Shown: positions 4,776-45,791 of the stretch, in pieces
Layout: every line of letters starts with the position of its first letter
How positions within the stretch are numbered: position 1 is the stretch's first letter
Source of the DNA: Catajapyx aquilonaris
Taxonomy: Eukaryota
Direction of reading: 5' to 3'
DNA length: 45,791 nucleotides
Assembly: GCA_000934665.2 (NCBI GenBank)
Contig: JYFJ02003156.1
Location: 1 to 45,791 of the forward strand
Translations under genes and position numbers: made by a program
The notes under the pieces: generated by a model
The model's database searches: none
What the model was told of the DNA's origin: nothing
Seen by the model: the letters and a program-made list of their open reading frames with translations, nothing else

Positions 4776-4795
4776 GAGTGAGTGAGTGAGTGAGT
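4776..4795. repeat. (GAGT)n microsatellite
   Basis: Five tandem GAGT units. Confidence 0.85.
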
Positions 4796-7700
4796 ATAGG
4801 TGTAAGCAGTCCAGGGTAGTCTGAAGCTGGTGGGTATCCATCTGCAGTGAGTTCCGGGACAGCGTGTCCGTCAGCTGGAATTGAGTAATACTGGGCTGGC
4901 GGTAATTGATAGCCAGCTGCATTCAAGCGCTGTCTGTCACCCCACCAACCTTCCCCCCCTCCCTGCAAGCTGCACCCGTGTCCACTGCACACTGTGTTTT
5001 AACATTTGAACACCCCCGCCTGGGCCACCCAACCACTTTACCATGCATATTCGCTCGCTTATAAAATGCTAAAGTGGACACGTGTAGGGGGAATATAATG
5101 GCTGCAATTACAATGGGCGCTGGTTTTAAGCCCGCTCTGTTTATGGCTCCGGATTATTCCCGCTCTCTTTGTCTGCCCTGATTTGGGCCTCTCCCTCCAG
5201 ATGAAAGCACAACTCAACACACTGGCCTACCCCTGTGTGCGTTGCCTTTTTTTTGCGACTTTACCCGGCTCGTGTTATTCGCAGGGACACTAATTGTGTT
5301 GTGGGGGGATGGGACCGGTCTGGGAAATGTTGGCCCAACACGCCTTGCCTCAAATGTGCAAGCTCCATAAGCTCATTTGCGTCTTAACTCGATTCGAATC
5401 AGGTTGAACGTGCCACACACATGACCCGGGGACCCATTTGGGGACAGGGTTGCACTTTTTGTTCATTGTCTGCCACCGGGCTTAATTGTTCAAACTTGTG
5501 GCATCAGGCTAAGGTGCTCGATTTATTCATAGTACACAAGCACTGGGGTCTGTATCAATACCAGCGGTATAAAATGGAACCCACAATGTGTGGGTCGGGA
5601 TTAAATTAGGGTCCGCACGTTGCGGGGACCATTAGATACCGCTGGTTTTGACACGGTTCGTAAATTCGGGTCAGTGTGGCGCGGCCCTCTAATGCGAACC
5701 CGATATCAAGTGTTTGGTTTTTGGCGTTGGTCAGATGGAGTCGTCTAATGCAAAGGCGTGTGTGTAACCTAGGCTGACAAGTGTGTCAGTCGTCAAAGAG
5801 GTGGGAGAAGGAGTGGAGTGTGTATCAAGTTTTGGAGACACCCAGGACGCTCTTGCATGCCAAGGATTAGGATGAACAGGCTTTGGGATAACAATGTGCC
5901 GCATTTTTTAAAACACCAAAAGTAAGAGAACAAGTAATACTACAAAATAATGAAGACCTGGAATGCGTATCAAGAGTCACATTTTGATCAAAATTGAGCT
6001 AGGCTTTGTTTACAGTCCTGGAAGGCTACTTTTCGAGGTGGAGTCTGCTAAACATATTACAACCTGCCAGATTAATATTCTTGGAAGAAATAATACTAGT
6101 AATTGCGACTCATTCCGTACGAGCTAAGCTTTCAACTACTTGAAACCGTCGCGTCGCATCTTGAAATCAGTCAAATGCGATCTAACTGATTATGATCGTT
6201 TTCAATATCAGGACTTGACATATTAACCTGATATTAGCCCGATATAATGTGCTCTCCCCGTAATTGGAAAAACTTGAATACTGTGTTCCACGACTAGAAC
6301 TTTTTTACATCACATACGCACTATGCAGTACGTGTGTTCTTTTGCGCTTTAAAAAATTGGCGGTGTCGTCATGTGGGTTGGGCTTCTACAAATTCGACGT
6401 AGAATTTTTGGATATTTGCCCACATACTGAGTGCTTAAAGTACCTTACGCTGCAGCAAAAATACTGCATGCTCTCCCTTTTTTTTTGGCCGAGCTATATT
6501 ACAAATTGATGGTACAACGCCCGCAAAACTCAATTCGCGAAGGATGTAGAGCCCATTTCCGAAACCCAGCCCGTTGCGCAATTTACACCATTGCTAGAGG
6601 CATTGGCAAATTTTTTTGTGTACTTATGTGTGAATTTTTAACTTTGTTTTTCCCCGAAAACTTTTCTGGCTGCAAACCCTAAAGCGTACGTTATGTTGTT
6701 TTCGACTGTTTATGCAGTATTACATTAGTTTCCTTCAAACTTTTTACCGGTGCCGATGTGCATTGTTTGAAACATAGCTGGAGACTCCATCCCAATATCA
6801 AAATATGAACAAGGGTAACTCAAAATATTTCCCTCGGTTTTTATGGTGTGTTTTCATTTTTGGGTGTATTGGAGTTGTGAAATTATTCCCAGGAGCGCAA
6901 GAAGTTTATAACAATGTGCATTTTAGAATGCTCAGTTTGCCGAGGCTCCTTTTAATAGGAAAATGCAAGTAAATGAAACGTGAAATAATTAATGTAATAA
7001 TAATGTTAAGCACTGCAGTAATTACAGCATTACCTTTCAGTTGACTGTGTAGGAAAAAGTAACTCTTTATGCTGCACAGGGAAATATGAATCTAATGCCA
7101 TTGATCTGTGACAATGAAGGGGTTGATTGCACAACTTTGCACTTAAGTATTGAATCTCTAAAATGAAACATTAGCTTTGCTAGCAGTTCCGAGGGATTCT
7201 GAAAATAGCAACTGAAATATATTCAAAATATTGTCAAGTAAAATATATTGTTGCGCGCATAGCTGATCGAAAGAGGTCATATAGATTTATATAGTCTAGA
7301 CATTGGCTTTTAGTGCTGTCCAACTTAATGACTATTTGCTACATTTGTGGCGAAGGAAATTAGTGTAGTAAATATTACTTTTATATGCAAAGTTACGTTT
7401 TGCAATTTTTTTAAAAATTTTTTGCTTGCGTAATTACTAGATAATTTTGTGGTGGGAGTTCTGTGAGTGGGTGTCGTATATTTCTACCACACTCCTGCGG
7501 TAAAATTTACCAAGACCTAAACATATCTGCCACGATTTATTAACACAAGCATTTGTGCATAAAATGATAGACTATACTGCATAGTAAGTTACTTTTAACT
7601 TGTCGAATAATATATTAACTACTGTAATACGAAACTGTCTGAATAACTTGAGTAGAAAAATCACTTTTTCCCACAGAGTAAGTTATATGTAATTAGTTTC

Positions 7701-16824: not shown

Positions 16825-18090
16825 CCGTAAAACGTGGTGTGATTGTGCCAGCGCATTTTTGGGGCAACAACGCACCCTTTTGGCAGCAGGCGTAAACTGG
16901 CGAATTTAGGCGTATTCCATTACATTGGTGAATATTCAAGGTTGACAGTCACGATTCGCGATTTGTTGCGATAAAGCCCGTAAAATAAAAAAAAATTGCA
17001 GAAATTTAGATTTTCGTCAAGTTTTGCATTTGGTGGTATAGTAGTGGTTGCCGTGAGTGGACGGTTGCTTCTCTTTACCAAGTAAGTTACTACTTCCATA
17101 ACTGTGTTATTGAAGGTTATAAATACGACTGGACATTTTTAAATCTGCATTTGTTCTTGAGCTATGACGCAATGAGTAAAAGAAATAGGCACTTGACGGG
17201 GTGATATTGTGCCCCCCCCCCCCCCCCNCCCCCCCCAATCATTTCACGTGATGAGAAAGGTTTACGTGAAGAAGATCGGTCGGAAGCTTTGGCAGAAACC
17301 CTGGCTAACATTTCTGCGACGTTTAAAAGGTGGAAAGTGGATAGTGAAATAATGGGGGAAAACATGGGAAAACAGTGACACAATCTGACCTCGTCAACTG
17401 CACTGATTTTTTTACTAATAGCGCCATGTTTCAAAAAATCCCCCTCCCCCCTCATATATTGAAGATGCTCCTTTTTACAGACAGAAACCCCATGACACGT
17501 TTCCTATTCCAAGTATTTAAATATGCTGGCACATTCTCACCCCCACTCGACGGGGTGAAATTGTGCCTCGGAAAAGATTTTATATCTCCCCTCCCTTAGC
17601 GTATAAAAATTATTTTCCTATATGATCTTAAAGGGGGGAGGTGTAGATGGCCGAGATGGTAACGTCTCGGCTTGCTGAGTGAAAGGCCCCAGGTTCGATC
17701 CCCGCCTGGGGAACTTTCCTTTCACCTGCGTCAGGAGGGTCTCTGACCTGCACCAAGGAGGTGTCTGGCAACCTAACCTCCTGGGGAACAGCACATGACC
17801 CCTTTACCGACCTTGAACTTGCACCAATGTTCCCTCCCCAAAAAATCCCTATCCCTACCCTACATCCTTGACTCCTTGCACCTGTGATGAAGTTAAAGGA
17901 AAATTGGAGAGTAATGGTGGTATTCCACCCCCCTAAAAAGGCTAAGCCTTATCACGGGGTAACATAAAAAAATCTTAAAGGTGAAATGTGCATCAACGTT
18001 GTATATAAATTTCGCTCCAATATATAAATTACTCTGATTTGCTCTTAAGGAAAACCTCACAAAGTGGCACAATCTCACCCCGTTTGACGG
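16825..18090. mobile_element. Non-autonomous Tc1/mariner-superfamily (pogo-like) DNA transposon with a nested SINE
   Basis: 26-bp TIRs CCGTAAAACGTGGTGTGATTGTGCCA / revcomp CCGTCAAACGGGGTGAGATTGTGCCA (23/26); TA on both sides (16823-24, 18091-92); further internal copies of the GGGGTGANATTGTGCC motif near 17198, 17377, 17528 and 17552. Confidence 0.85.
17635..17971 (+). mobile_element. tRNA-derived SINE, family A copy 1 (full length)
   Basis: A-box TGGCCGAGATGG, B-box GGTTCGATCCC, A-rich tail, 10-bp TSD ATCTTAAAGG (17625-17634 / 17972-17981); first ~250 bp highly similar to the copy at 34251. Confidence 0.93.
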
Positions 18091-19472: not shown

Positions 19473-22400
19473 GTGACCTGAGTAATGACTAGATTTTAAA
19501 AAATTCTCACCGCGTGTATCAGGACATGAGGACATACAACGTGGATTTTTGTGCACTTATCAGCAGTAAATTATTATTTACAAGATGTAATTTCCGTTTC
19601 TAGCGGAGATTTCGAATATGACTAATTTTTACTGTGTATACCTAGGATAAAATATTCTGTATAAATGGAGCTTTACCTGGTTTACAGTTACATCATATTA
19701 ACATACCGGTATTATAGAAGTATAACAGCTTATTGTGACCTTTTCCCAATATTTAGTAACTGTCGAAAATAATACACTGTGTATAGGGTATGCCCTACAG
19801 ATTACGTCCATATATACCAAAATAGTACCCACATTGGAAAAGGTGAAGAATATTCATATTTTTATTTAAGTTACGCCTAGTCCACTGGGAAACCGGTGAC
19901 GTCCGGTGACATTTCTGTTGCAAATATAGAATGGGAGGTCGTTACTATGACGTAATAAGCATGGGATAAGAGATGTCAGCGGTGTTCCAGTGAATAGTAA
20001 GAGGCCTGAAACATTAATCATCTCCCATCATTTAGTCACGGCATGACGTATATGCATTAACAAATTGGAAGTAGCTATAAACATGGATATAGAGAAGCGG
20101 TACTCCACTGTCTTGTTATTACTGTACTTCCCTTTGACGTCAGGAGAGAATACTTGGGAATAATATGTGCGTCACAAATGCCACGTAATTATATATATTT
20201 TTGGCATATGAGCCTTTTACAATGCTAAAGGTCGAGGCATTTGACTTGTTAACTGACAAATGTTGCGGCTTACAATCATTAGCCACAAAGACTGAAATTA
20301 CTGCCACCAATATGAACATGTTCTCATTTTCAACTATAGGGACGAGGGGAAATATGATCATCTATGCACTGGACCATGTTGGTTGTACACGTCATTGAAA
20401 GTTTTAAAAATGAAAACTAATGCTATCCACTGACATTATGCGGATAACTAGACGTTACGTATAGATCATTTCCCCTCCTGACCCTATATGCTGGGACCTA
20501 GTTGTACATTGTTTTGTAAATACCCCCAACTCGATTTGGGCCCACGAGTGATGCACTTTCAGAGCATTTTCCCCTCAGCTAAATCATAAGTTGGGACAAG
20601 AGGGGAGGATGGTGTGGGGGAAGGGGATATAGGTGGTTGAAAAAAAGTGCTGCAAGTTTGATGCGTCGAAATTGAGTGCGAGTGGGGTAAATATTCCATT
20701 CGGGAGTGTGGCCGACGTCAGCGCCGTTACCACCAACACTTGCTAAACATTGCAGAAAGGCCTAAAGCCAGCTTGAAGCCGAACTGCCACATTTGCGACA
20801 AGCATGAAATGACTATTATTATTCGAAAACAATGTATTTTTGGCCGCTGCTAATATGATGCCAGTGCTGCTTAGTGACAAATGTTTAAAAATTCCTATAG
20901 CAGCGTATAATGGGTGGCAGAATGAAATCGTTAAACCGCAGGTCCAGACACTCTGGGCTCATCATTTCTTCTCCAGTGGACGGAAGAAATATCGGTGAAT
21001 GGTGGACGTCCCCGAGTGCTAACATCAGCGAGTGACTTAGCGCGCAGGCAAGGACAGCACACGCGGGTACGTCTGCGAATGAAAAGAGAAGAAAAGAGAT
21101 ACGAGTGGATGGTGCAAGTGGGTCCATCCACGTCTAGTGCAGCAGGCGGCTTGCAGTTTTTTTCCCTTTTTGGGGGGGAGGTGGGCCATTCATCCGGGCC
21201 CATCTCTTTGTTAGCCACTCATAGGCCCAGGGTTTCTCCCCCAGTTTTATAGGGAAGGGGGGGGGNNNNNNNNGGGGGAGGGCGATGCAGCCTTATCTGT
21301 CCCAAGGAAGGCACTTGTGGAACTCTCTCGCACCCGACTCTATCGATCTGGGTCCAACAGCACACACTTGCCATGTCGAGTGCCAGAGTTGTTGTTTTTT
21401 TCCGCCTTTTTAGGGGGGTAGGGGGCACCCTTCCGCGTCAAGTGGAGGAAACATGGCGGCTCATCATCCCCCAATTCCTAGGAAACAGCGTGTGGCCACC
21501 ATTCTGGGCATATGCACGCTTAATTGACATGGCGAATGATTACGCTGTTATCACCTCTCGCGGACACAACAAAAAAACAGGAGCCAAAAATTACGAGCGT
21601 TGCGTTTGAAATGCGCGTAAAATGCTGGGGCACGCATAAACAAAATTAGGCTTATTTTCAGGTGACGTTAATTGAGTGACTGGAGCATGGAAGTGGTTAA
21701 TTGGGAAGCAGGGTGTAGTGTGCATTTAGCACTGATTCGTATCTGGCAGTGACAGAAATAAAACAGTGTGCATGGTATTATCACGTCAAAATTTCAACGC
21801 CTCTTCAAACCCCATGATGGATATAGATGTCGATGGTAGAGTCCCGACGGAACTGATTCTGCTGACTTGGGACCGTTTGCAGGGTCCGGTGGTTGTCAAG
21901 GGAGATTGGGTGCTTAGCGAGCTTTTGGTTCTTAATGGGGGCCAATGGGCTCAAGACGGTTTAACCGCCCCGGTGTTTTATGGGCCCAGGGGGCAGCCCA
22001 GGCGTATATATTCAATTATTGCCTGCTCTATTTCCAAGCTTGTCCGCCATTTTGGACTGGATTCAACGCAACCCATATATCGTAAATTTGGCCATTGAGT
22101 GCCGGCTCTTTTTCCCCCGCCACCGCCACACCCCCCTCTTGCACTACTCACATGCTACACTTTCCCAATTATGTAACATATGAGCCCCATGTCCCACACG
22201 AGTGCCCCATTAAACTTGTATTGACCTTTTAGCGCTTTGATCAAGCTGTTTTGGTCAAATACGAGCACCGCTACTGCTGGAGAGTTGCGTCTGAATTAGG
22301 TCCGGTCTCCTATTTGATTCCAAGTGTACAAGTCATGGTAGGATTCTGACATAAATCCCCGCTAACTTGTCCTGTCAGCACACTAACTAAATGGGAGAGG

Positions 22401-33918: not shown

Positions 33919-34250
33919 TATCTTTAGAACATAAATCTCTGCAGAGTAATACTATACTACATTTTCGAGTGTCTGAATTGATGTGAAAAGATTCCGGACG
34001 TTATATCCTGACAGAAAATAAAAGATTCACGATCATTGAATATAGTCATTCTACTGTGGCTTATTCCAATGATTATGCCAAACAAGCATCAAAATTACCA
34101 TTCGCAAACTCGATCTAAAATAACGACCTGGAAATCCCTTATGTCCCTCATGAAACGATCGCTTACAAAATCCCACAAATTCTAAAATATTGGGTTCCAG
34201 TGTTTGCGAAAAAACTAAAAGAAACATATAGTAGCAAGTAGGTCTACTTG

Positions 34251-34599
34251 GGGAGGTGTGGTGGCCGTGATGGTAACGTCACGGCTTGCTGAGTGAAAGG
34301 CCCCAGGTTCGATCCCCGCCTGGGGAGCTTTCCTTTCACCTGCGTCAGGAGGGTCTCTGACCTGCACCAAGGAGGTGTCTGGCAACCTAACCTCCTGGGG
34401 GACAGCACATGACCCATTTGTAGACATTGCACTTGCACCTATGTTCCCTCCCCAAAAAATCCCTACCCCTACCCGACATCCTTGACTCCTTGCACCGGTG
34501 AATGAAGAAAAGTGTAAAAACAAAGAGAAAACTGATGGTGGTGTGCCACCCCCCAAAGAGGCCTTTGATGCCTAGCACGGGGTATTTAAAAAAAAAAAA
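34251..34599 (+). mobile_element. tRNA-derived SINE, family A copy 2 (full length, young)
   Basis: A-box TGGCCGTGATGG, B-box GGTTCGATCCC, poly(A) tail, perfect 15-bp TSD AAGTAGGTCTACTTG (34236-34250 / 34600-34614). Confidence 0.95.
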
Positions 34600-35452
34600 A
34601 AGTAGGTCTACTTGTATAATTTGCACAACAACTGCAGTTCACTACATTCCTTGCTCTGATGCATTGATTGCAAGTTTTTTTAAATATCCCCGCAAAACCA
34701 TTATTATACGTAGAAAGGGAGACGACGTAACTAATTTCTTTCTGTTACACTGTTCAAGGTAATGGGTCGAGAATGTTACATTGTCATTAATTGATGGTAA
34801 CAATAAACATGCCAATAATAAAGATAAATCCGTCCATCCACTGCCTGCAGTGGTGCCATGGGTCCTTTTGCGGATTTTGATGGGAATGATGATGAAAGCA
34901 TTTTATGATCCATAAAATAAGAGGAAAGTCGCCACATGCGGACCCGGAGCTTCATTTTGCCAACTAGGTGATGCAGACTAAAAGCGAGACGGCCAAAAGG
35001 TTCATCAGTAAAGACGGCGTGAAGATATAGTGTAATCGCAATCACGTAGTTAGCATTGTTCAGTAATGAGTGGTGGGTTGATTTCTATTTTAGCGATTTG
35101 TGAAATTGTTGCAGCCTTTCTTCTCTTTGGGCATAGCTTGACTTTGTCATTGGTCAGAGTTGGTTTTTCACCCTGACTACTAGAAATAGAGTAGACGTAA
35201 CGATATATGTGGAAATGTCACTGCTTCTTAAATGTATAATACTTTAAAATGACATGCTTTCAAAGCAACGCTCTTCCCCAAATGCGGACTCCTACGAGTT
35301 CCAAAAGAGGCCCCCCACATGGGGGTTGAGGGAGGGGGTAAGAGAGGAGAAAGTGTGCGAAAGAGGCCTTGAAGGAAGGTTCTGAGTTGAGATGCTTTGT
35401 CGCGGTTAAAATGGTTCAACAGCATTAACAACTTCGAATAACTGATTTTGTT

Positions 35453-35528
35453 CACTGGAACAAAAATAATTACGCCCAGCTATTTAAACAGGTTTAAATA
35501 GCTGGGCGTAATTATTTTTGTTCGAGTG
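35453..35528. repeat. 76-bp near-perfect palindrome
   Basis: 37-bp arms (36/37 match) around a 2-nt AG centre. Confidence 0.95.
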
Positions 35529-38527
35529 GTTTTCCTGCTGCTGATTTGCTCTCTGCCAACGCAAGCTATTATTATTGAGTTTGGTTTATCTATAAAGAGC
35601 TCGCACCATAACGCAATATAGAGGCCCATATTATTTTTTCGTATTTATAAATACCTGTAATAAGCACTGGAATAGTTAACCTGAGGAGTTTAGGATTTGT
35701 TGTTTAACATATACGTACAGTACCGGTACTCGTTTCATGGTAACTTTGCGCGGAGATTGTCGGATTTCGCAATTTTTTTTGTATAGGCCTACTTGCTTTC
35801 TTATCTTTCCAGAGTGAATTTCTCCAAATTGATGAAAGATGCCTTTCCCTGCATATAGCTCATCCAGTTGCGTCCATGCTGGGAAAGATGACTTCACATT
35901 TCTTGTTGACTTTTTTGTTGCAACTGAGCGTCTCTTAGGCGAATAAATGTCGTTGAACGCCCCTGATATAGTCTTGCATGTTGTACTTGGGGGGTGACCC
36001 CGATGGTGGCAGCCGCTGCCAGAGGTCTTTGCATGTAATTAAAGCGGTTATTGTAGCGACACTACTAAGCTCGGATTATGGAATTGTGCATCTGGCTCCT
36101 CCTAAGAGGCAAGGCCTATCGTCTTCTATACCCTCGATTCTGATTCTAATACGGCGTGGAAATTGGATTGGAGTTCTGCCATATTTGGATCGGCTAAATG
36201 CTCTGGGACTTTTGCGGGATAGACGCCAACGTACCGGATTTTGCACTCCGGGAAAGGAGAGGGAAATGTTTAGAAAAAAAAATGGCAGAAAAAAGTTTCG
36301 TCTCGGACACTCCTTGAAAAGGAATTGGACGCTGTCACGTGTTGCGACACGACGGCTTTGATCCAGATCCGGAAAGGCTGCCCGGATGATAAGTCTCACC
36401 CTTTCTTCCTGGTCCCGGACGAAAAGAAAAAAATCCGGGGTTCCATGCACCCCCGGTCCTCCCAGATTAGTTAGCTTCCTAGACACGAAGCTCACTTTAG
36501 AGGGCCAGCTGATCAATGGAGAGCAGTCCCTGGTCTGATGTGTCCCCAGATGCGTGTCCGGCCCGTTTGTAAGGACGCGGGAGGTCGTGTCCTCTACAAC
36601 CCGGAATTTTGCCGCAGCAAAGCAACTCCAGTTTCTCCATAAATCCTTAACCGGCTCCCAATGGGCGTATACCCATGAATGGAATGACCACAATAACATC
36701 ATCGGTGGCCATGAAACTGTTTTTCCTCTTGTCCTTCGCATACAGAGCGATACAATAATAACAATGTGGGATACTCATGAGGTTCGTTCCTCTTCTGCAT
36801 TGCGACTCACTTTATTTTCTCATAACGACGCTATTGATATTGAGTTTCTGGAACAGAATAAGATTTAATCATGAGAGCGCGGATTAGAGTTTCTTCCAAC
36901 TTTGTTGCTCTACATTATGTGTGCCTACATTGTGTCTCCATGAAGCTGTACATCATTACCTATTGTGTATTTTAAAAAAGAAATACTTGGTAAAATCTCT
37001 CTTCCGTTGAAGATTGACAATATTATGCAGTGGGTATGTTACCCTTAGGTATAGGATTGTATCAATGCCTGCTAAGTTTTGACGGCTTGTATTTATTTAT
37101 TGTTAATTGGATGACACCAAGAAAGTGCAGGCCAACAACAATAATGAACAGCTGTCAAAATTGTACACAGATGGATGAAATTCTGCTTACAGCAGCCTGT
37201 AGTCTACTGTATATTAACTGTAGGCCGTATTATCTCTCTCGCGAATTAAATGAAAAGAACAAAAAGTGTCTGTTGGGTTGTTGTAAAAAACGCGGTGTTT
37301 CCGATGCATGACATGGGAATTACATCATTGTGATTTCACGATAATTACGTACCAATATTTTAGTTGTGTCTAAAGCGTTGGAAGTATTGCATAACTGTTC
37401 ACTGAACCGCATAAATTCATCGTGTTTAACTATTATTATTTTTTCACTGGCGGTAGTGCATAAAACTGGCCTGATCTCCCTTATCGCTCACTTGCATAAC
37501 GATTCATTACGGTTATACCGCAGGCCTTTGTTATGGTGATGCTATTTACGGCTGATTTGTAGCAGCGCCACTGGATTATTTATCTAATAGCTGGCCACTT
37601 GTTCCATTCATTAGCTGAGAATTTAAGGTTCTAAGCCCGGGGATGTGGCTGGTGGTGCATAGTGCGTGTTAGTGTGGGATAGTGCAAGTGACACGTTCCT
37701 TTCGCCGCATGATGGCAGTGGAAATCCATAAGCATTGTCGCTTTGTGGCTGGCTGCGAGGCAGATAAAGAGTGGCCAAAGTGGGAAGTGGAGTGTGCCAG
37801 CTGATGGCTGGAGCGGCCATTGTGCTTGTGGGCCAGTGCGCATGCGCGCCCATGGGGAGCGGATAGTCGTCGACAGCAATAAGTCCCCCTCTCGAAAGAA
37901 AAGAATGATAATCTGGTAGAGATCGATTTTCCGTTTGCTCCCAAACGCCGGAAGATTATTTGCAGGAGAGGAAGTGGAGCCTTTGAGAGGAACTTCGGGA
38001 AGGGAGCCGTTAGAGCCCCGGAAAACGGCGCTCCGGAGGCAGCAGCCATCCCCTCCTCTTCTTTTGCAAATCCGATATAAGGCAGAGACTGCGGCCTCCA
38101 CCAGATCCCAAAGGAATAATGCTCTTTTCACGCCTACCTGCCTGCCTGCCAAATCACAATCCTTTGCCTTCCTCACATATACTTTTTCCCGAGTGCAAAT
38201 GCGCCCTTGCCATAATCACCCAGCCTCAGCTCACATGGGGAAGCAGACATCGTGTAGCAGATGAACAATTTCTATCATCACTATGTTCTTCTGATAATAT
38301 CATGATGCGCTGTGTGAGGACAACGGGAGTCAGAAGTGCGACATTCGTAATTAATGATATAATAATTTTTAACAATTTTCATTGTGGTAATTATCTTCTT
38401 ATATCCGGAAATGACAAAATGACTATGATTTTGTATTGTGACTTCGCCATCTGATACTGTACATTATGTCTAGGTATTCTTGCAAATTACATGCATTGGA
38501 CCTGCCATGTTGGCAGGAGAACGGCAA

Positions 38528-38820
38528 GGTGCGGTGGTGTAGTGATAATCGCCACGACTTTCCAGTTTCCACCCATGAGGTCCCGAGTTTGATCACCGGG
38601 TCTGGCAGAGGAATTACTCATGTGGAAAGAGTTTCGATGGGTTCTCCATCCCCCACTCCCCACTCTCCTAAAACCCCTCCTAATTCCACCTGTATGATGC
38701 TAGATAGATAGTGCTTCTGTCTGCCAGGCTGGCAACCATTCCTGAATCACACGCTTTGAGCAAAATGGGGTTCATGGCCAAAGATTGCTTCTTCGCTGAA
38801 TGTGCTGCGGCTGTAATAAT
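38528..38820 (+). mobile_element. Degenerate tRNA-derived SINE (possible fourth family)
   Basis: A-box-like TGGTGTAGTGAT, B-box-like GAGGTCCCGAGTTTGATCACC, ends near GTAATAAT; no TSD; right boundary uncertain. Confidence 0.45.
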
Positions 38821-39239
38821 GCATGCAACATCGGGTACAGTACCATGTCATCGATGATGAAAGTTGCATTATGACAACAGAAGTTACTGTTCCAACTAAG
38901 CGAAATTTCTATACACTATAGCCAACTATAGCCAAGGTTGCATTATAACAACAGAAGTACTACTCCTCTGAAGTTTCAAGATGCTAATTAAATTTTGAAA
39001 CACGTGTCACTCTATTGGTTAATTAGGATAATAAGTTAGTGGTAACTAGTAGCAATTAAGAGCACAGAAAATGACTATAGCCTATCATTCCATTTTTTCC
39101 TGTCATAATGAAACTTCATCCTTACGGAGTGCTTATTAGGTGCTCACTGAAGGGCTCGCAAATGAAAGTGCTTGTATTTCTAGCCCATAAGTTCTTGAAA
39201 CATGGCTTGACCCAGCAATGTAAGTGTTACGTGTTGTTG

Positions 39240-39309
39240 CTAATGTGATTGTTTGCTCTTTGCAGGTAAGCGTCGCGGCATGGTCCGAAAACGACCATTT
39301 TGCGTAAGT
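39240..39309 (+). other. Candidate recursive splice site (ratchet point) with 38-nt cryptic exon
   Basis: Branch point CTAAT (39240-44), pyrimidine tract TTGTTTGCTCTTTG, CAG|GTAAGC at 39265/39266, no AG for ~39 nt upstream, downstream donor GTAAGT at 39304-39309. Confidence 0.7.
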
Positions 39310-41974
39310 GCCCTCTCGTTATTGAACGTTCTACCCTCCCATGAGTGAGCACTTTTAACGGTGCGGATGAAATTGGCATTAAACGAGAACGTATGTGTGG
39401 CCCAGCGATGGTTAACCAGCTTAATCCACTTGTAAACAAAGATTTTATCATGTGTCACGGCGCAACTCACGGTTATGCGCCAATAAATTATTTACCACAG
39501 GTTGAGCCACATAAAAATGATGATCCGTTGTTCAGCCCCGAGTATAATGGACATAAAGCGCATTATTACAAACCGATTTAAGAGATGACGAGATTATAGC
39601 GATCGGGAAGCAGAAGGGTATATGCGCATGCGCAAGATGGCTACCCTCGCCAGTGATCTGCTGATTGACCGCATCTGGACGTGTTTAGAGGCTTGTGAAC
39701 CCTGTGTATCGGTATTATCGGAGGTGGGTACGACCCCCGGCCTCTTCGTGCACTGCGGCATGAAACTCGATTAGCGGCAAAGGAGGTCCAAGTGCAGTCT
39801 ATTTGGGCAAATAGGGAGCGCGCCAGGCCTTATTGGATTAATTCCTCCCCAGGCCGCTTTCATCAGGAGGTCACCTGCGACCGGGGACCCCGGGGTTTGA
39901 CCGGAGGCCAATCAAGACCCTGGCCCTCCCAATTAGTGTGTCTCCACTTTCGGCTAATGTCATAAGTGAGAAGCAAGACGTAAACAACTCCATTAAGGGC
40001 ATTCGCCTCGTGCCTCTCCACCGGATGAGGGGGATTCCAGCCATATTTGCTGCCAGGAACAATATGGAGGTGCTGCGGCACCATGTATGCCTAAGCGGCT
40101 GTAATTAAACTCCCAGGCCCTGACGGCATGTTTGAAATCCAATCCAAAAGTCAGGTGGAAATTGACAGCCTGCTGGGCCTAGAGTCAGGAGTTCAACTCC
40201 AGGCGTGCACTCTCTACAGTATCATTTTGAAGAAATGTCACGTAGAGCAGTGGAGAGCATGAAAACTGAATGCATTATACAGTACGAATCGCGTGCAGAC
40301 TGGTACAATCAAGTTAGTACAAGTGATCAAATGAGGACATCCAGTATTGAGTTTCTGGCGAATATCTTCTCTCTGCGCGAACCTGCTGGCATTATGCAGA
40401 GGGAACTACTTGGAAATTGAAGCCTGTGTGGGATAGTTTTGCTCATGCTGTGGCTGGATCATATCTTAGGAAGAGGACCGGGATGAAATTTATCCACACT
40501 GCTCTATTGAAACATGAAGCCGGGAGTGGTTGAGGATCAATCCTGGCTCCGAGATTTGCGAGGCTTGTCCCGGTTTGTGACGTAATAGGGTCGTCCAGCA
40601 CTGGTTTCTTTCCTTCCCTGCCCAAGTCTCTCGTGTAATTCACTTAAGTGTCTTGTAAGAGGATTGAATTTGGGAGGCTAAGGGGTTCTGCCCATCACTC
40701 ATCCCACCCCTATTTTCAACCGCCCCTCTTTAAAATTCAAGGAGAGCACCCAGGACATCTGCATCAGGCACTTTGACGTCAGCGCAATTGCACGCCACGC
40801 TGCAATTAAATCATAAGATGACGCTCTTTGATAAACAGCGGGGCGGCCATATTTATTGCACTTTTAGGGGCCGTTATCTGCAAACCGATTTCTTGTACAC
40901 TCACACGCTTTATGGTCGACTCATTGCACCTTACCCCTGTTTATATATTTGATTATATGAGCTGTTTCTGAGGAGCGGGGTGTCTTCATCGAATGGCCCC
41001 GGGTCAATAGAGCTGCGACCTCTTGAGCGATGATGTAGGTCGGTTCTCCGTGAAGGTGAAGTGCGATGACCTTTATCCGCGCTTGGCGGCAAACTTGGAG
41101 CAGATGCAGCCGACGGCCCCGCGATTCTCATTTTGGCCCCTAACGAGGGAGTTAATGCGGATGAGCGTGTTATGCCGTGGCCAACCCCCGGAGATAAGTG
41201 ACATATCTCGAGCGTAAATCCTGGAGAATGCGAAGTAAAGGGATGTTTAGGAAGCACCGAACACGTGTAGTGCGGATGGATTTCTTTTGTCCACATCCAT
41301 TATGCCGTACTTCTGCTTTTTATTGAAAGAAGGTACGGTTTTTTGTATGGAAAGTGACATGCTAATAATAATCACGCTGACATAAATGCTAAGTGATGAC
41401 GCGAAAGGCTGTGTGCCCGAGATTCACTTACAAATTTCCTCAAAGTGGTATAATTTATGTTGAGCAACATTTGTCACTAATCTTTCTGCAATAATAAATG
41501 TGGAATATTCTGCAAATCTATCCGTAATTTAAAAGGGATTAAATGCAATTAATTAACTTCGAAATGAATGAGAGGTACTTTGACATAACTTATACATGAC
41601 AGTTTATCATTCATAACGGAAAATACATCAAATTCCATCGGAATTAGCAAAATAGACATTATAGGACCCATATATCTGGGTTAAAGACATGCCAAAGTTG
41701 CATTATTCAGGATGAGTCATTTGCCGTTGTCGCGTACTGGTTCGGCCCATCAGTTGAATGGTATTGCTCTATAGAAAGATACAATCCCCACGCACGTTAA
41801 TGAATGGCGATAACATTACTGAACGACATTAATGAACCGGTATTTATTTGCTTGAATAGAATTATGAATGATCTTTTCCGAGGTCACGATTAATTAGGGC
41901 GTCAATATTTTAACTGGACATGAGAAATATAGTATAGCAGCATAGACGCAAGTTTCATGAAAAACGCACGGTTT

Positions 41975-43032
41975 GTGACAGAAGCGTAAAATTTGTCATT
42001 TTCGTTCACTAAAAATATGCTGATCAAAATGTGATGTAGTGCCACCTCGAACTGAGACCGGAAGTGGCCGCCATTTTGAAAAATGGCGGCTTAAAACCGG
42101 TTTCCTAAGCATATCTCTAAAACGCCTGATATTTTGATAAGAAGATGTATTACCAAAAATGCTCGGAATGATATACTCCATAAAAAAGGTCAGAATCATC
42201 ATTTACATAATGGCAAAACGTACGTCGCAAAACCGGGATGAATAGCGGGGTTAGGATATGGATATGGATGGCTATGTAAACATTTCATATTTTTGAATGC
42301 ATTAAATACTGTTCTTCACCAACACAACTTTATATACAGGCCTATATAACTGTCCTTTACCTCCATAAAATACTCGCTTCGTAACGTAGTACATCACCAA
42401 AAGATGGCCATTGCGACACTTTTGAATTTATTTATAATTTATTGTCTAGATTTGATACTATCCACACTACAGAGAAAAGGAAAGTGTTGTCTGGAAGAAC
42501 ATTTCGTGCTCTTTCATTTATGTGCAGTTCAATATGATGAAAACCTAGCCGTTTTCGTGATAAAAATGTTTTTGTCCAACATATCCGATTTGGCCGCCAT
42601 TTTTTCAAGATGGCGGCTTTTGGTGCGACAGGACAGTGGTAGACTTTGCGCCATCGTTTTTATCGCCATTTTTTACTATGGAATCAGTTGACACCATTTC
42701 TGTTGCAGTTAGTTCTACGTCCATCAACAATATATTTGACTGGACTATTCCTAACCCATCTATTCATCCCGGTTTTGCGACGTACGTTTAACCATTATGT
42801 ACATGATGATTCTGTCCTTTTTTATGGAGAATATCATTCCGAGCATTTTTGGTAATACATCTCGTATATCAAAATATCAGCAGTTTTAGAGATATACTTA
42901 GAAAACCGTTTTAAGCCGCCATTTTTCAAAATGGCGGCCACTTCTGGTCTCAGATCGAGGTGGCACTACACCACATTTTGATCAGCATATATTTTTAGTG
43001 AACGAAAATGACAAACTTCACGCTTCTATCAC
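41975..43032. mobile_element. Long-TIR non-autonomous DNA transposon (possibly Academ-like; superfamily uncertain)
   Basis: ~280-bp inverted arms 41975-42256 / 42749-43032, alignable throughout; true termini may lie ~30 bp further out (TAG at 41943); TSD not resolved. Confidence 0.88.
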
Positions 43033-43341
43033 TATTTGACTATTGCTGTCCTACTAATAGTGCATTGATCATGCAAAATATTGCATCTCTCTTTGTGATA
43101 ATTTTTCAGGGAGCTTTCCGATTGTAGATAGCAATTTTGATAAAACGTCATTTCGGTAAAGAAGGGGAATAAATGCAATCTGGAACTGGAGCACATGTGT
43201 AATGTATGTGCTTGAGATTTCACACGTCGACATATCCGCTATATTAGGCTGGATTAATATTACGCGCTAACTTAAATTCTTGAGCGATCTATACCTTATC
43301 CGCAAGGTTGAAGGAAGTGTGTAGGCCTATTATACAGTTCA

Positions 43342-43570
43342 GGGGGGAGGCGTGGTGGCCTGCTGTGCGTGGTGACATGCTGTGCGAAAGGTCCCGGGTC
43401 CCCGCCAGGGAGTTCCTTTTCGCCTGCGTCGGGAGGGTCTCTGACCCGCGCCTTGGAGGTTTCTGGCAACATAACCTCCTGGGGGACTGCACATGACCCA
43501 TTATTCAGACATTGCACATGCACCCATGTCTCCTACCCAAAAATTCCCATTCCTATACCCCATGTCCTTT
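43342..43570 (+). mobile_element. tRNA-derived SINE, family A copy 3 (older, B-box damaged, 3' part missing)
   Basis: Collinear similarity to the copies at 17635 and 34251 (CCTGCGTCGGGAGGGTCTCTGACC, CTGGCAAC.TAACCTCCTGGGGGAC.GCACATGACCC). Confidence 0.88.
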
Positions 43571-43737
43571 CTGGGTGGTTCCATTTCAGATCAGCCAGTG
43601 AGTGAAAAAAGGTGTCAGGTCATAGTCATCGATTTTTTTGAAAAATATATATGTGAAACCCACATCGAATTGAACTCTTATGGAACAAGCAGTTTTACCA
43701 GATTAAATTTAGTTATCGAGTTATTAATATTTATTTG

Positions 43738-45791
43738 AAGGGGTACCAAATCACAATCACGCGAAGACGCACTTTTTCCCGCTTTTTCCATTGCTTTCAA
43801 TGAGGATATCTCGGGAACTGTTCAGAGAACCAACATGAAATTTTTAACTCATGCTTTTGGAATGACACGCTGTTATGTCATGCATAAATTTACCTCATTT
43901 AATGGTACAGTCACCTGAAAAAAAATCTCCAACATTGCATATTTTGGTCAAAATTCGCATATTTCGCAATTTATTACGGCGTTATGGTAAACGTGACGGT
44001 TATGCCGATTATATTTTGTTATATACTCGGTGACCCCCTCCAGGATATGAAATAAAATCTTCGTTAGCTCCCCGTGTAGTTGAGATATGCGAGGTGAAAA
44101 TATGGCAACAAGCGAAAACATGCATATTTCAAAAATTATTTTCTCAAAAAAGCCATTTTTTAAAATTTATTTTTATTTTTTATTTTACAAGGAAAGGCAT
44201 GGTATAAAATTACCTGGTGTCAAAACCCCGAATATATTTTTTATACGTGAGATATAAATTTTTGAAAAGTCACAACTTTTGTAATTGTGCTACAATATGC
44301 ACACTTTTTAAAATAAATATTTTCTCGAAGAAGCCATTTTAAATATTTTATTTTTATTTTTTATTTTATAAGGTCGGACATGTTATAAAATTATGTAGTG
44401 TCAAAACCCGGTATATATTTCTTATACGTGAGATATAAATTTTTGTAAAGTAACAACATTCGAAATTGGGCTACAATATGCACACTTAAAATAAATGTTT
44501 TCTCGAAGAAGCCATTTTGAAAATTTAATCGTTATTTTTTGTATAACAAAGTAGCATGAGTTCGATTATAAAATTATATCAAAATTCGGTATATATTTGT
44601 ATTCATTGAGACACGGAATTTTTTTACAGTGATGATTTTTGTTTCTATGCAACAACATGCACATTTCAAAAATTAATATATGGAAAACGCCATTTTAAAT
44701 ATGCAATATTCTTTTATATTTCATAAAGGAAAGACCGGTTCTGTCGTAAAATAATATAAAAACCTGGTATAGATTCTTGATGATACAAATTTATGAAATG
44801 TGGCATTTTTGCTTTCGTTTAGTGTGTTTCAACACCCTTGGAGTTACTTCTAAAGTAATATTCGACATAAAAAATAAATGTCAACAACTAATCTGGAAAC
44901 CTTCCATAATGGTCAACAGAAGGCAAGGGGGTATTAAATGTAAAATGGACCCACTTTCGTGACCATCTTCATGAGCTATGGAATGCATGAAATTATACAT
45001 TTATATAAAACTGTAAAACTTCATGAAACCCTCCCCATTATTGTATGAGACTATGCATACATGGGACAGTGTGTGTTGGTTACACCATCGGGAAATTAAT
45101 ATGTATCCATTTTGCATTTAATTCCCCCTTGCCTTCTGTTGACCATTATGGAAGGTTTCCAGATTAGTTGTTGACATTTATTTTTTATGTCGAATATTAC
45201 TTTAGAAGTAACTGCAAGGATGTTGAAACACACCAAACGAAAGCAAAAATACCACTTTTCATAAATTTGTATCATCAAGAATCTATACCAGGTTTTTATA
45301 TTATTTTACGACAGAACCGGTCTTTCCTTTATGAAATATAAAAGAATATTGCATATTTAAAATGGCGTTTTCCATATATTAATTTTTTAAATGTGCATGT
45401 TGTTGCATAGAAACAAAAATCATCACTGTAAAAAAAATTCGTGTCTCACTGAATACAAATATATACCGAATTTTGATATAATTTTATAATCGAACTCATG
45501 CTACTTTGTTATACAAAAAATAACGATTAAATTTTCAAAATGGCTTCTTCGAGAAAATATTTATTTTAAGTGTGCATATTGTAGCCCAATTTCGAATGTT
45601 GTTACTTTACAAAAATTTATATCTCACGTATAAGAAATATATACCGGGTTTTGACACTACATAATTTTATAACATGCCCGACCTTATAAAATGAAAAATA
45701 AAAATAAAATATTTAAAATGGCTTCTTCGAGAAAATATTTATTTTAAAAAGTGTGCATATTGTAGCACAATTACAAAAGTTGTGACTTTTC
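43738..45791. mobile_element. Foldback-type DNA element with modular long inverted repeats; continues beyond the window
   Basis: Near-identical inverted arms 44264-44949 / 45106-45791 around a 156-bp spacer; arms built from ~180-bp units; left boundary inferred near GAAGGGGTACC. Confidence 0.85.
44120..44800 (+). repeat. Diverged ~180-bp tandem repeats within the foldback left arm
   Basis: ATGCA-anchored units start at 44120, 44297, 44478 and 44657 (periods 177, 181, 179), each with GCCATTTT; mirrored in the right arm. Confidence 0.88.

Follow-up and report, generated by a model that had tools for sequence, protein, structure and literature searches.

We asked whether a cluster of splice-like motifs at 39.2 kb in the window, the whole 45,791-nt stretch of DNA analysed here, could mark a site of recursive splicing. 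Stepwise recursive splicing is a known mechanism, and the present site would be one motif-level candidate for it. As described for flies, ratchet points consist of juxtaposed acceptor and donor motifs with a prominent tract and high conservation, and the same source gives TT at positions -5/-6 in 196 of 197 Drosophila ratchet points and a length range of 11.3-132.7 kb for the introns that contain them (10.1101/006163). Of the fly introns that exceed the shortest recursive one in length, the Duff set gives only 6% as recursive (10.1101/006163), and a recursive site is reported in 63% of fly introns over 40 kb (PMC6110457). Recognition is reported to depend on a cryptic RS-exon of ~50 nt, out of frame in most cases, that ends in a 5' splice site, and the rebuilt ratchet-point donor is said there to beat the donor of the RS-exon, the stronger donor winning (PMC8605326). 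A recursive-splicing interpretation of the present motif is plausible: it would fit the sequence anatomy, and nothing that we tested contradicts it.

On the + strand the site reads, in order, CAGCAAT GTAAGT gttacgtgttgttg CTAAT gtgattgtttgctctt TGCAG/GTAAGC gtcgcggc ATG gtccgaaaacgaccattttgc GTAAGT g, where, as in all motifs below, the slash marks a putative splice junction (Table 1). An earlier note, written from the letters of this DNA, had described a branch point ~22 nt upstream of an acceptor, a pyrimidine tract, an AG-exclusion zone of ~39 nt, an acceptor fused directly to a donor, and a consensus donor 38 nt further downstream. All of these are present where the note had placed them, and the fused junction TTGCAG/GTAAGC falls between 39265 and 39266. 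The ATG that it saw inside the 38-nt unit is there as well, and the unit is out of frame, as it had proposed (38 mod 3 = 2). What the earlier note lacked is the third GTAAGT, at 39220, which allows the site to be read as an ordinary exon. Together with the acceptor ending at 39265, this GTAAGT bounds a 46-nt intron-like unit (39220-39265) that has its CTAAT and CAG in common with the fused site. Counted over the 20 nt ending at -5, pyrimidines make up 13 of 20 positions. The hairpin formed by the 6-bp inverted repeat is present in both the MFE and the centroid structures; a stable RNA fold of the site region was not found (z = 0.31, with 125 of 200 shuffles folding as well).

Table 1. Features of the 39.2-kb site. 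Donor matches are generic consensus counts and not the output of a host-specific splice-site scoring model; Y, pyrimidine.
Feature	Position	Strand	Remarks
Upstream donor-like GTAAGT (AAT/GTAAGT)	39220..39225	+	read from sequence
Branch-point-like CTAAT	39240..39244	+	candidate branch A is the second A, 39243, 22 nt from 39265
Pyrimidine tract	39249..39261	+	11/13 Y; TT at -6/-5 is 39260-61
AG-free zone, 39 nt	39225-39263	+	nearest AG upstream is 39223-24; tract lies inside the zone
Acceptor-like TTGCAG	39260..39265	+	last intron base would be 39265
Donor-like GTAAGC, putative ratchet-point donor	39266..39271	+	adjoins acceptor; 5/6 intronic and up to 3/3 exonic consensus positions, depending on the upstream exon
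Putative cryptic RS-exon, 38 nt	39266..39303	+	contains ATG 39280-82
6-bp inverted repeat in 38-nt unit	39280-85 / 39293-98		ATGGTC / GACCAT
Downstream donor-like GTAAGT (TGC/GTAAGT)	39304..39309	+	6/6 intronic, 0/3 exonic consensus positions

To judge the site against chance, we compared it with the rest of the window and with shuffled and simulated sequence. The heptamer AGGTAAG occurs once on the + strand and not at all on the - strand. The core TTNCAGGTAAG has one match against 0.10 expected per window, and at least one match appears in 10 of 100 dinucleotide shuffles. Sites were scored by a plain 19-position consensus count (ten Y, CAG, GTAAGT), which is generic and not the host's own splice-site profile; on this count the site reaches 17 and heads the 260 AG/GT sites in the window, the next best having 15. 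A score of at least 17 is present in 12% of 300 order-3 Markov windows. With 0.10 matches expected, the core present in 10 of 100 shuffles and the score reached in 12% of the simulations, chance could account for the fused core by itself in a single window. Nor is there any strand-wide enrichment of AG/GT sites on the + strand, where 5 sites score at least 14 against 11 on the - strand.

The accessory features are each unremarkable taken singly. The 13/20 pyrimidine content sits at the 75th percentile of the 225 TTNYAG sites in the window, and the AG-free zone of 39 nt lies between the 75th (26) and 90th (44) percentiles. Among 4912 AG sites, the zone from -50 to -12 contains CTAAY in 4.5% of cases and YTRAY in 24%, and the stretch 20-100 nt downstream contains GTRAG after 9% of the sites and GTAAGT after 1.5%. 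The whole configuration is expected ~0.001-0.02 times per window, a product of measured rates that we multiplied ourselves, that varies with strictness and whose thresholds were chosen after the site had been seen. By this estimate, the full combination is uncommon in one window, yet expected several to many times per genome. The three GTAAG that lie within 90 nt at the site were also considered as a signal in themselves and rejected as not significant, since at least three GTAAG within 100 nt were found in 26 of 400 simulated windows. Elsewhere in the window, the (GAGT)5 microsatellite at 4778-4797 yields six GTRAG within a span of 100 nt, an example of repetitive DNA that looks like a group of donor motifs.

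The window as a whole has a GC content of 43% and a CpG observed/expected ratio (o/e) of 0.82, and no coding signal was detected in it. Its composition and lack of genes suggest a fairly large animal genome that is not that of a vertebrate. Pfam families were found in none of the 8 longest open reading frames and in none of the 145 frames of at least 72 aa. The 256 frames of 50-71 aa gave two matches below the cut-off, to MerE (E = 0.0092) and Frag1 (E = 0.0076), about the number expected by chance, so that the 401 stop-to-stop frames of at least 50 aa hold no Pfam match above the cut-off. The window is likely exon-free; this falls short of proof because a Pfam search misses exons shorter than 50 aa or lacking a Pfam domain. 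ARAGORN called no tRNA gene in the window, and no Rfam family reached its gathering threshold there, the two matches near the site being far below it.

In all three DNA runs the site falls within one single-copy contig of 6528 bp (35494-42021), which contains no differing letters or variants, the three runs being of one sample. A repeat origin of the site was rejected, given its single-copy depth and the absence of any self-match in the window. A further sequencing run, whose kind is unrecorded, was inspected over 34300-44299; it covers only the repeat pieces 34284-34458, 38612-38649, 42562-42747 and 43418-44032, with depth in 6 of 30 bins, and leaves uncovered the piece around the site (38949-39419). 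A 24-mer spanning the junction had no match in metagenome contigs.

Several other elements are found in the window. A very abundant interspersed repeat of ~345 bp, possibly a SINE-like element, lies at 34239-34709 and recurs at 17635-17972 and 43344-43569; similarity among these three copies is 78-86%, the repeat has no Rfam or tRNA match, and the summed word depth of the repeat in the three DNA runs is 1.4-2.5x10^5, against 20-30 in the single-copy flanks. The piece at 38478-38948 is also multi-copy, chiefly over ~38612-38649, with a word depth of 2-5x10^3. By eye, 38520-38600 looks like the head of a tRNA-derived SINE with a C-rich tail after it, although ARAGORN calls no tRNA. Two inverted repeats look like foldback or MITE-like elements: one pairs 44264-44949 with 45106-45791 (within 44127-45791; 98% over 686 bp) and has as its basis a 181-bp unit in tandem (2.3 copies, 44137-44540), and the other pairs 41975-42256 with 42749-43032 (92% over 285 bp). 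The tail of the window is AT-rich with a high CpG o/e. Assembly gaps are present as a single N at 17228 and 8 N at 21266-21273, neither of them close to the site. Finally, CpG is undepleted in a patch at 39100-39800 (o/e 1.0-1.25, with 0.4-0.6 in the flanks), and the site lies at the upstream edge of this patch. A CpG island or promoter at 39100-39800 was considered and rejected, as the rise is only mild (o/e 1.0-1.25, GC 0.43-0.50).

We also examined the base composition of the two strands. With repeats masked, T exceeds A on the + strand by 3.0% and G exceeds C by 3.1%; of the 20 2-kb bins, 16 share the former sign (p = 0.002) and 15 the latter (p = 0.008), and the cumulative GC skew rises near-monotonically across the window. 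In mammals, the sense strand has G in excess of C together with T in excess of A. In Drosophila introns, T is reported to exceed A on the coding or sense strand, and the GC sign is opposite to that of the + strand here (PMC5786239). The skew is thus compatible with + strand transcription, or with the direction of replication, and it lends modest support to + strand transcription.

It is possible, at somewhat less than even odds, that the site is an intronic ratchet point with a short cryptic RS-exon, situated on the + strand in a long intron of an unannotated gene in a non-vertebrate animal genome. U2AF and U2 would recognise CTAAT, the T-rich tract and TTGCAG, and U1 bound to the downstream GTAAGT (39304) would define the 38-nt unit as an exon. 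The upstream exon would be joined to 39266, and the intron would lose its 5' part at this step. Ligation would rebuild a donor, xAG/GTAAGC, with up to 8 of 9 consensus positions, which would out-compete TGC/GTAAGT with 6 of 9. The 38-nt unit and the remaining intron would then be excised, and the mRNA would keep no trace of either.

Several observations support a ratchet point. It is favoured because the sole AGGTAAG of either strand coincides with the top score among the 260 AG/GT sites, because TT at -5/-6, CTAAT at -22 and the 39-nt AG-free zone accompany the core, and because a consensus donor 38 nt downstream, out of frame, fits the cryptic RS-exon model. The single-copy DNA, the absence of coding signal in the window and the T excess on the + strand support it as well. 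So do the sense-strand enrichment of RP-sites in long introns of the invertebrates studied (PMC2773006), the 63% share of fly introns over 40 kb that have a recursive site (PMC6110457), and the CpG o/e of 0.82, which speaks against a vertebrate host. It is weakened because the pyrimidine tract is only moderate, where fly ratchet points have unusually prominent ones, because no second strong + strand candidate exists in the 45.8 kb, and because Drosophila introns show the reverse of the G-over-C excess seen here on the + strand. The GTAAGT at 39220, 46 nt upstream, further weakens it, since this motif is outside the ratchet-point model and offers a competing reading; so do the low share of recursive introns in the Duff set (6%; 10.1101/006163) and a core motif that chance could produce in one window. 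The probability that we give to a recursive site, somewhat under one half, rests on assumed priors: we took 5-7% of such a genome to be sense-strand long intron, used published RP-site densities, assigned the downstream donor a likelihood ratio of ~5, the branch motif with the AG-free zone one of ~2 and the skew one of ~1.5-2, and put the chance that the host is an invertebrate with RP enrichment at ~0.5.

About equally likely as a recursive site is a chance co-occurrence of splice-like motifs with no function, the DNA being intergenic, antisense to a gene, or intronic with a pseudo-site that is ignored. The core's expectation of 0.10 per window speaks for chance, as does the behaviour of sites scoring at least 16 of 19, which show no enrichment (1 observed against 0.97 expected per window). 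Pseudo-exons are also common, 11 AG sites in the window satisfying loose requirements for an acceptor context and a GTRAG 20-100 nt downstream; clusters of three GTAAG recur in the simulations (26/400), the thresholds were set with the site in view, and neither the fold (z = 0.31) nor the RNA family search gave a signal. Chance accounts less readily for the conjunction of TTNCAG/GTAAG with the AG-free zone, the branch motif and the donor at +38, given its low joint rate (~0.001-0.02 per window), or for the strand skew, which favours + strand transcription. Against it, too, stands the report that sense-strand motif sites in long introns of the invertebrates studied are mostly above background (PMC2773006).

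The upstream GTAAGT opens a different reading, which we regard as unlikely: that the site belongs to an unannotated transcript (a lncRNA, a UTR, or an alternative or poison exon) as an ordinary small exon beside a short intron. Here a genuine intron of 46 nt would span 39220-39265, the 38 nt of 39266-39303 would be expressed as an exon and the next intron would start at 39304, and the exon-initial GTAAGC would be incidental, or the exon an expressed RS-exon. In its favour, the 46-nt unit opens with a perfect donor, has its branch motif 22 nt ahead of the acceptor, contains no AG internally and is T-rich in its body; GTAAGT is complete in both flanking donors, and the CpG-undepleted patch could mark a regulatory or transcribed island. 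An ordinary exon is disfavoured by the lack of an open, domain-bearing frame around the site, with no Pfam match above the cut-off, and by GTAAG clustering that 26 of 400 simulated windows equal. That clustering bears equally on a proposal we hold to be quite improbable, in which three GTAAGYG within 90 nt form a cluster of U1 snRNP sites that acts without splicing at 39265/66, as an intronic enhancer, as a decoy, or by keeping a long transcript from being cleaved and polyadenylated prematurely. Of the six GTAAGYG matches on the + strand, three do lie at 39220, 39266 and 39304, and a non-canonical role is described for a conserved U1-binding motif in an intron of Drosophila mod(mdg4) (PMC4387717); a U1 cluster, however, is not significant against simulation and leaves the acceptor-side features unexplained. 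Least probable, and in our view very improbable indeed, is an elaborated ratchet point, working in an invertebrate that is neither an insect nor a model species and coupled to the adjoining 46-nt mini-intron (39220-39265) as a three-donor switch in the stepwise removal of a very long intron. The mini-intron would share the branch point and acceptor of the ratchet point, and at the shared acceptor either a distant upstream exon could be spliced recursively over a long range or the mini-intron could be removed locally. The local removal would also re-create a donor, AAT/GTAAGC.

If confirmed, a ratchet point at 39265/66 would offer a recursive splice site open to experiment in an animal that is neither Drosophila nor a vertebrate, and would help to tell whether animals ancestrally remove their long introns in steps. 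Beyond those two groups, the evidence so far appears from the sources consulted to consist mostly of motif enrichment (PMC2773006) or indirect assays (locust, PMC8892266), and a library search on recursive splicing, long introns and invertebrates returned no paper devoted to a non-model invertebrate. At present the site is chiefly of value as a precise place at which RT-PCR or total RNA-seq could be brought to bear at low cost.

Compared with Drosophila ratchet points (Ubx, kuz, Bx; Duff et al., preprint 10.1101/006163; Joseph et al. 2018, via PMC8605326; Pai et al., PMC6110457), the candidate would be alike in its AG/GT fusion, in TT at -5/-6 and in its GTAAG donor. It is also alike in having a short out-of-frame downstream unit with a 5' splice site, as a motif match here, and in lying in single-copy DNA with no surrounding coding content. 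It differs in its moderate tract, in having C and not T at +6, and in the extra strong donor 46 nt upstream.

The RP-sites of other invertebrates (sea urchin, mosquito, bee and beetle; Shepard et al. 2009, PMC2773006) are likewise motif-defined, and likewise come from non-model genomes. By the counts given there, motif-defined RP-sites in introns over 50 kb are 4 to >20 times as dense on the sense as on the antisense strand in five of five invertebrates, with 0.540 per 100 kb on the sense strand and 0.066 on the complement in sea urchin. The antisense background is put at 0.07-0.12 per 100 kb per strand (PMC2773006), and the background that we measured, ~0.1 per 45.8 kb for both strands, agrees with these complementary-strand rates. 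The published sites were counted in annotated introns over 50 kb with a known sense strand (PMC2773006), whereas the present one is a motif-level candidate. The RS site of locust NPF1 was predicted from its motif, as here, but also has support from U2AF65 RIP (PMC8892266).

In eight vertebrates, the sense/antisense ratio of RP-sites is given as only 0.9-1.5, that is, without enrichment (PMC2773006). Vertebrate RS-exons are described as mostly expressed (Sibley 2015 and Blazquez 2018, via PMC8605326). Even so, the candidate is like these RS-exons, and like the 'zero-length exon' pseudo-exons (Grellscheid and Smith 2006, as cited in PMC2773006), in that a short unit would be defined as an exon, its first bases would rebuild a 5' splice site, and the donor so rebuilt would compete with the one that belongs to the unit.
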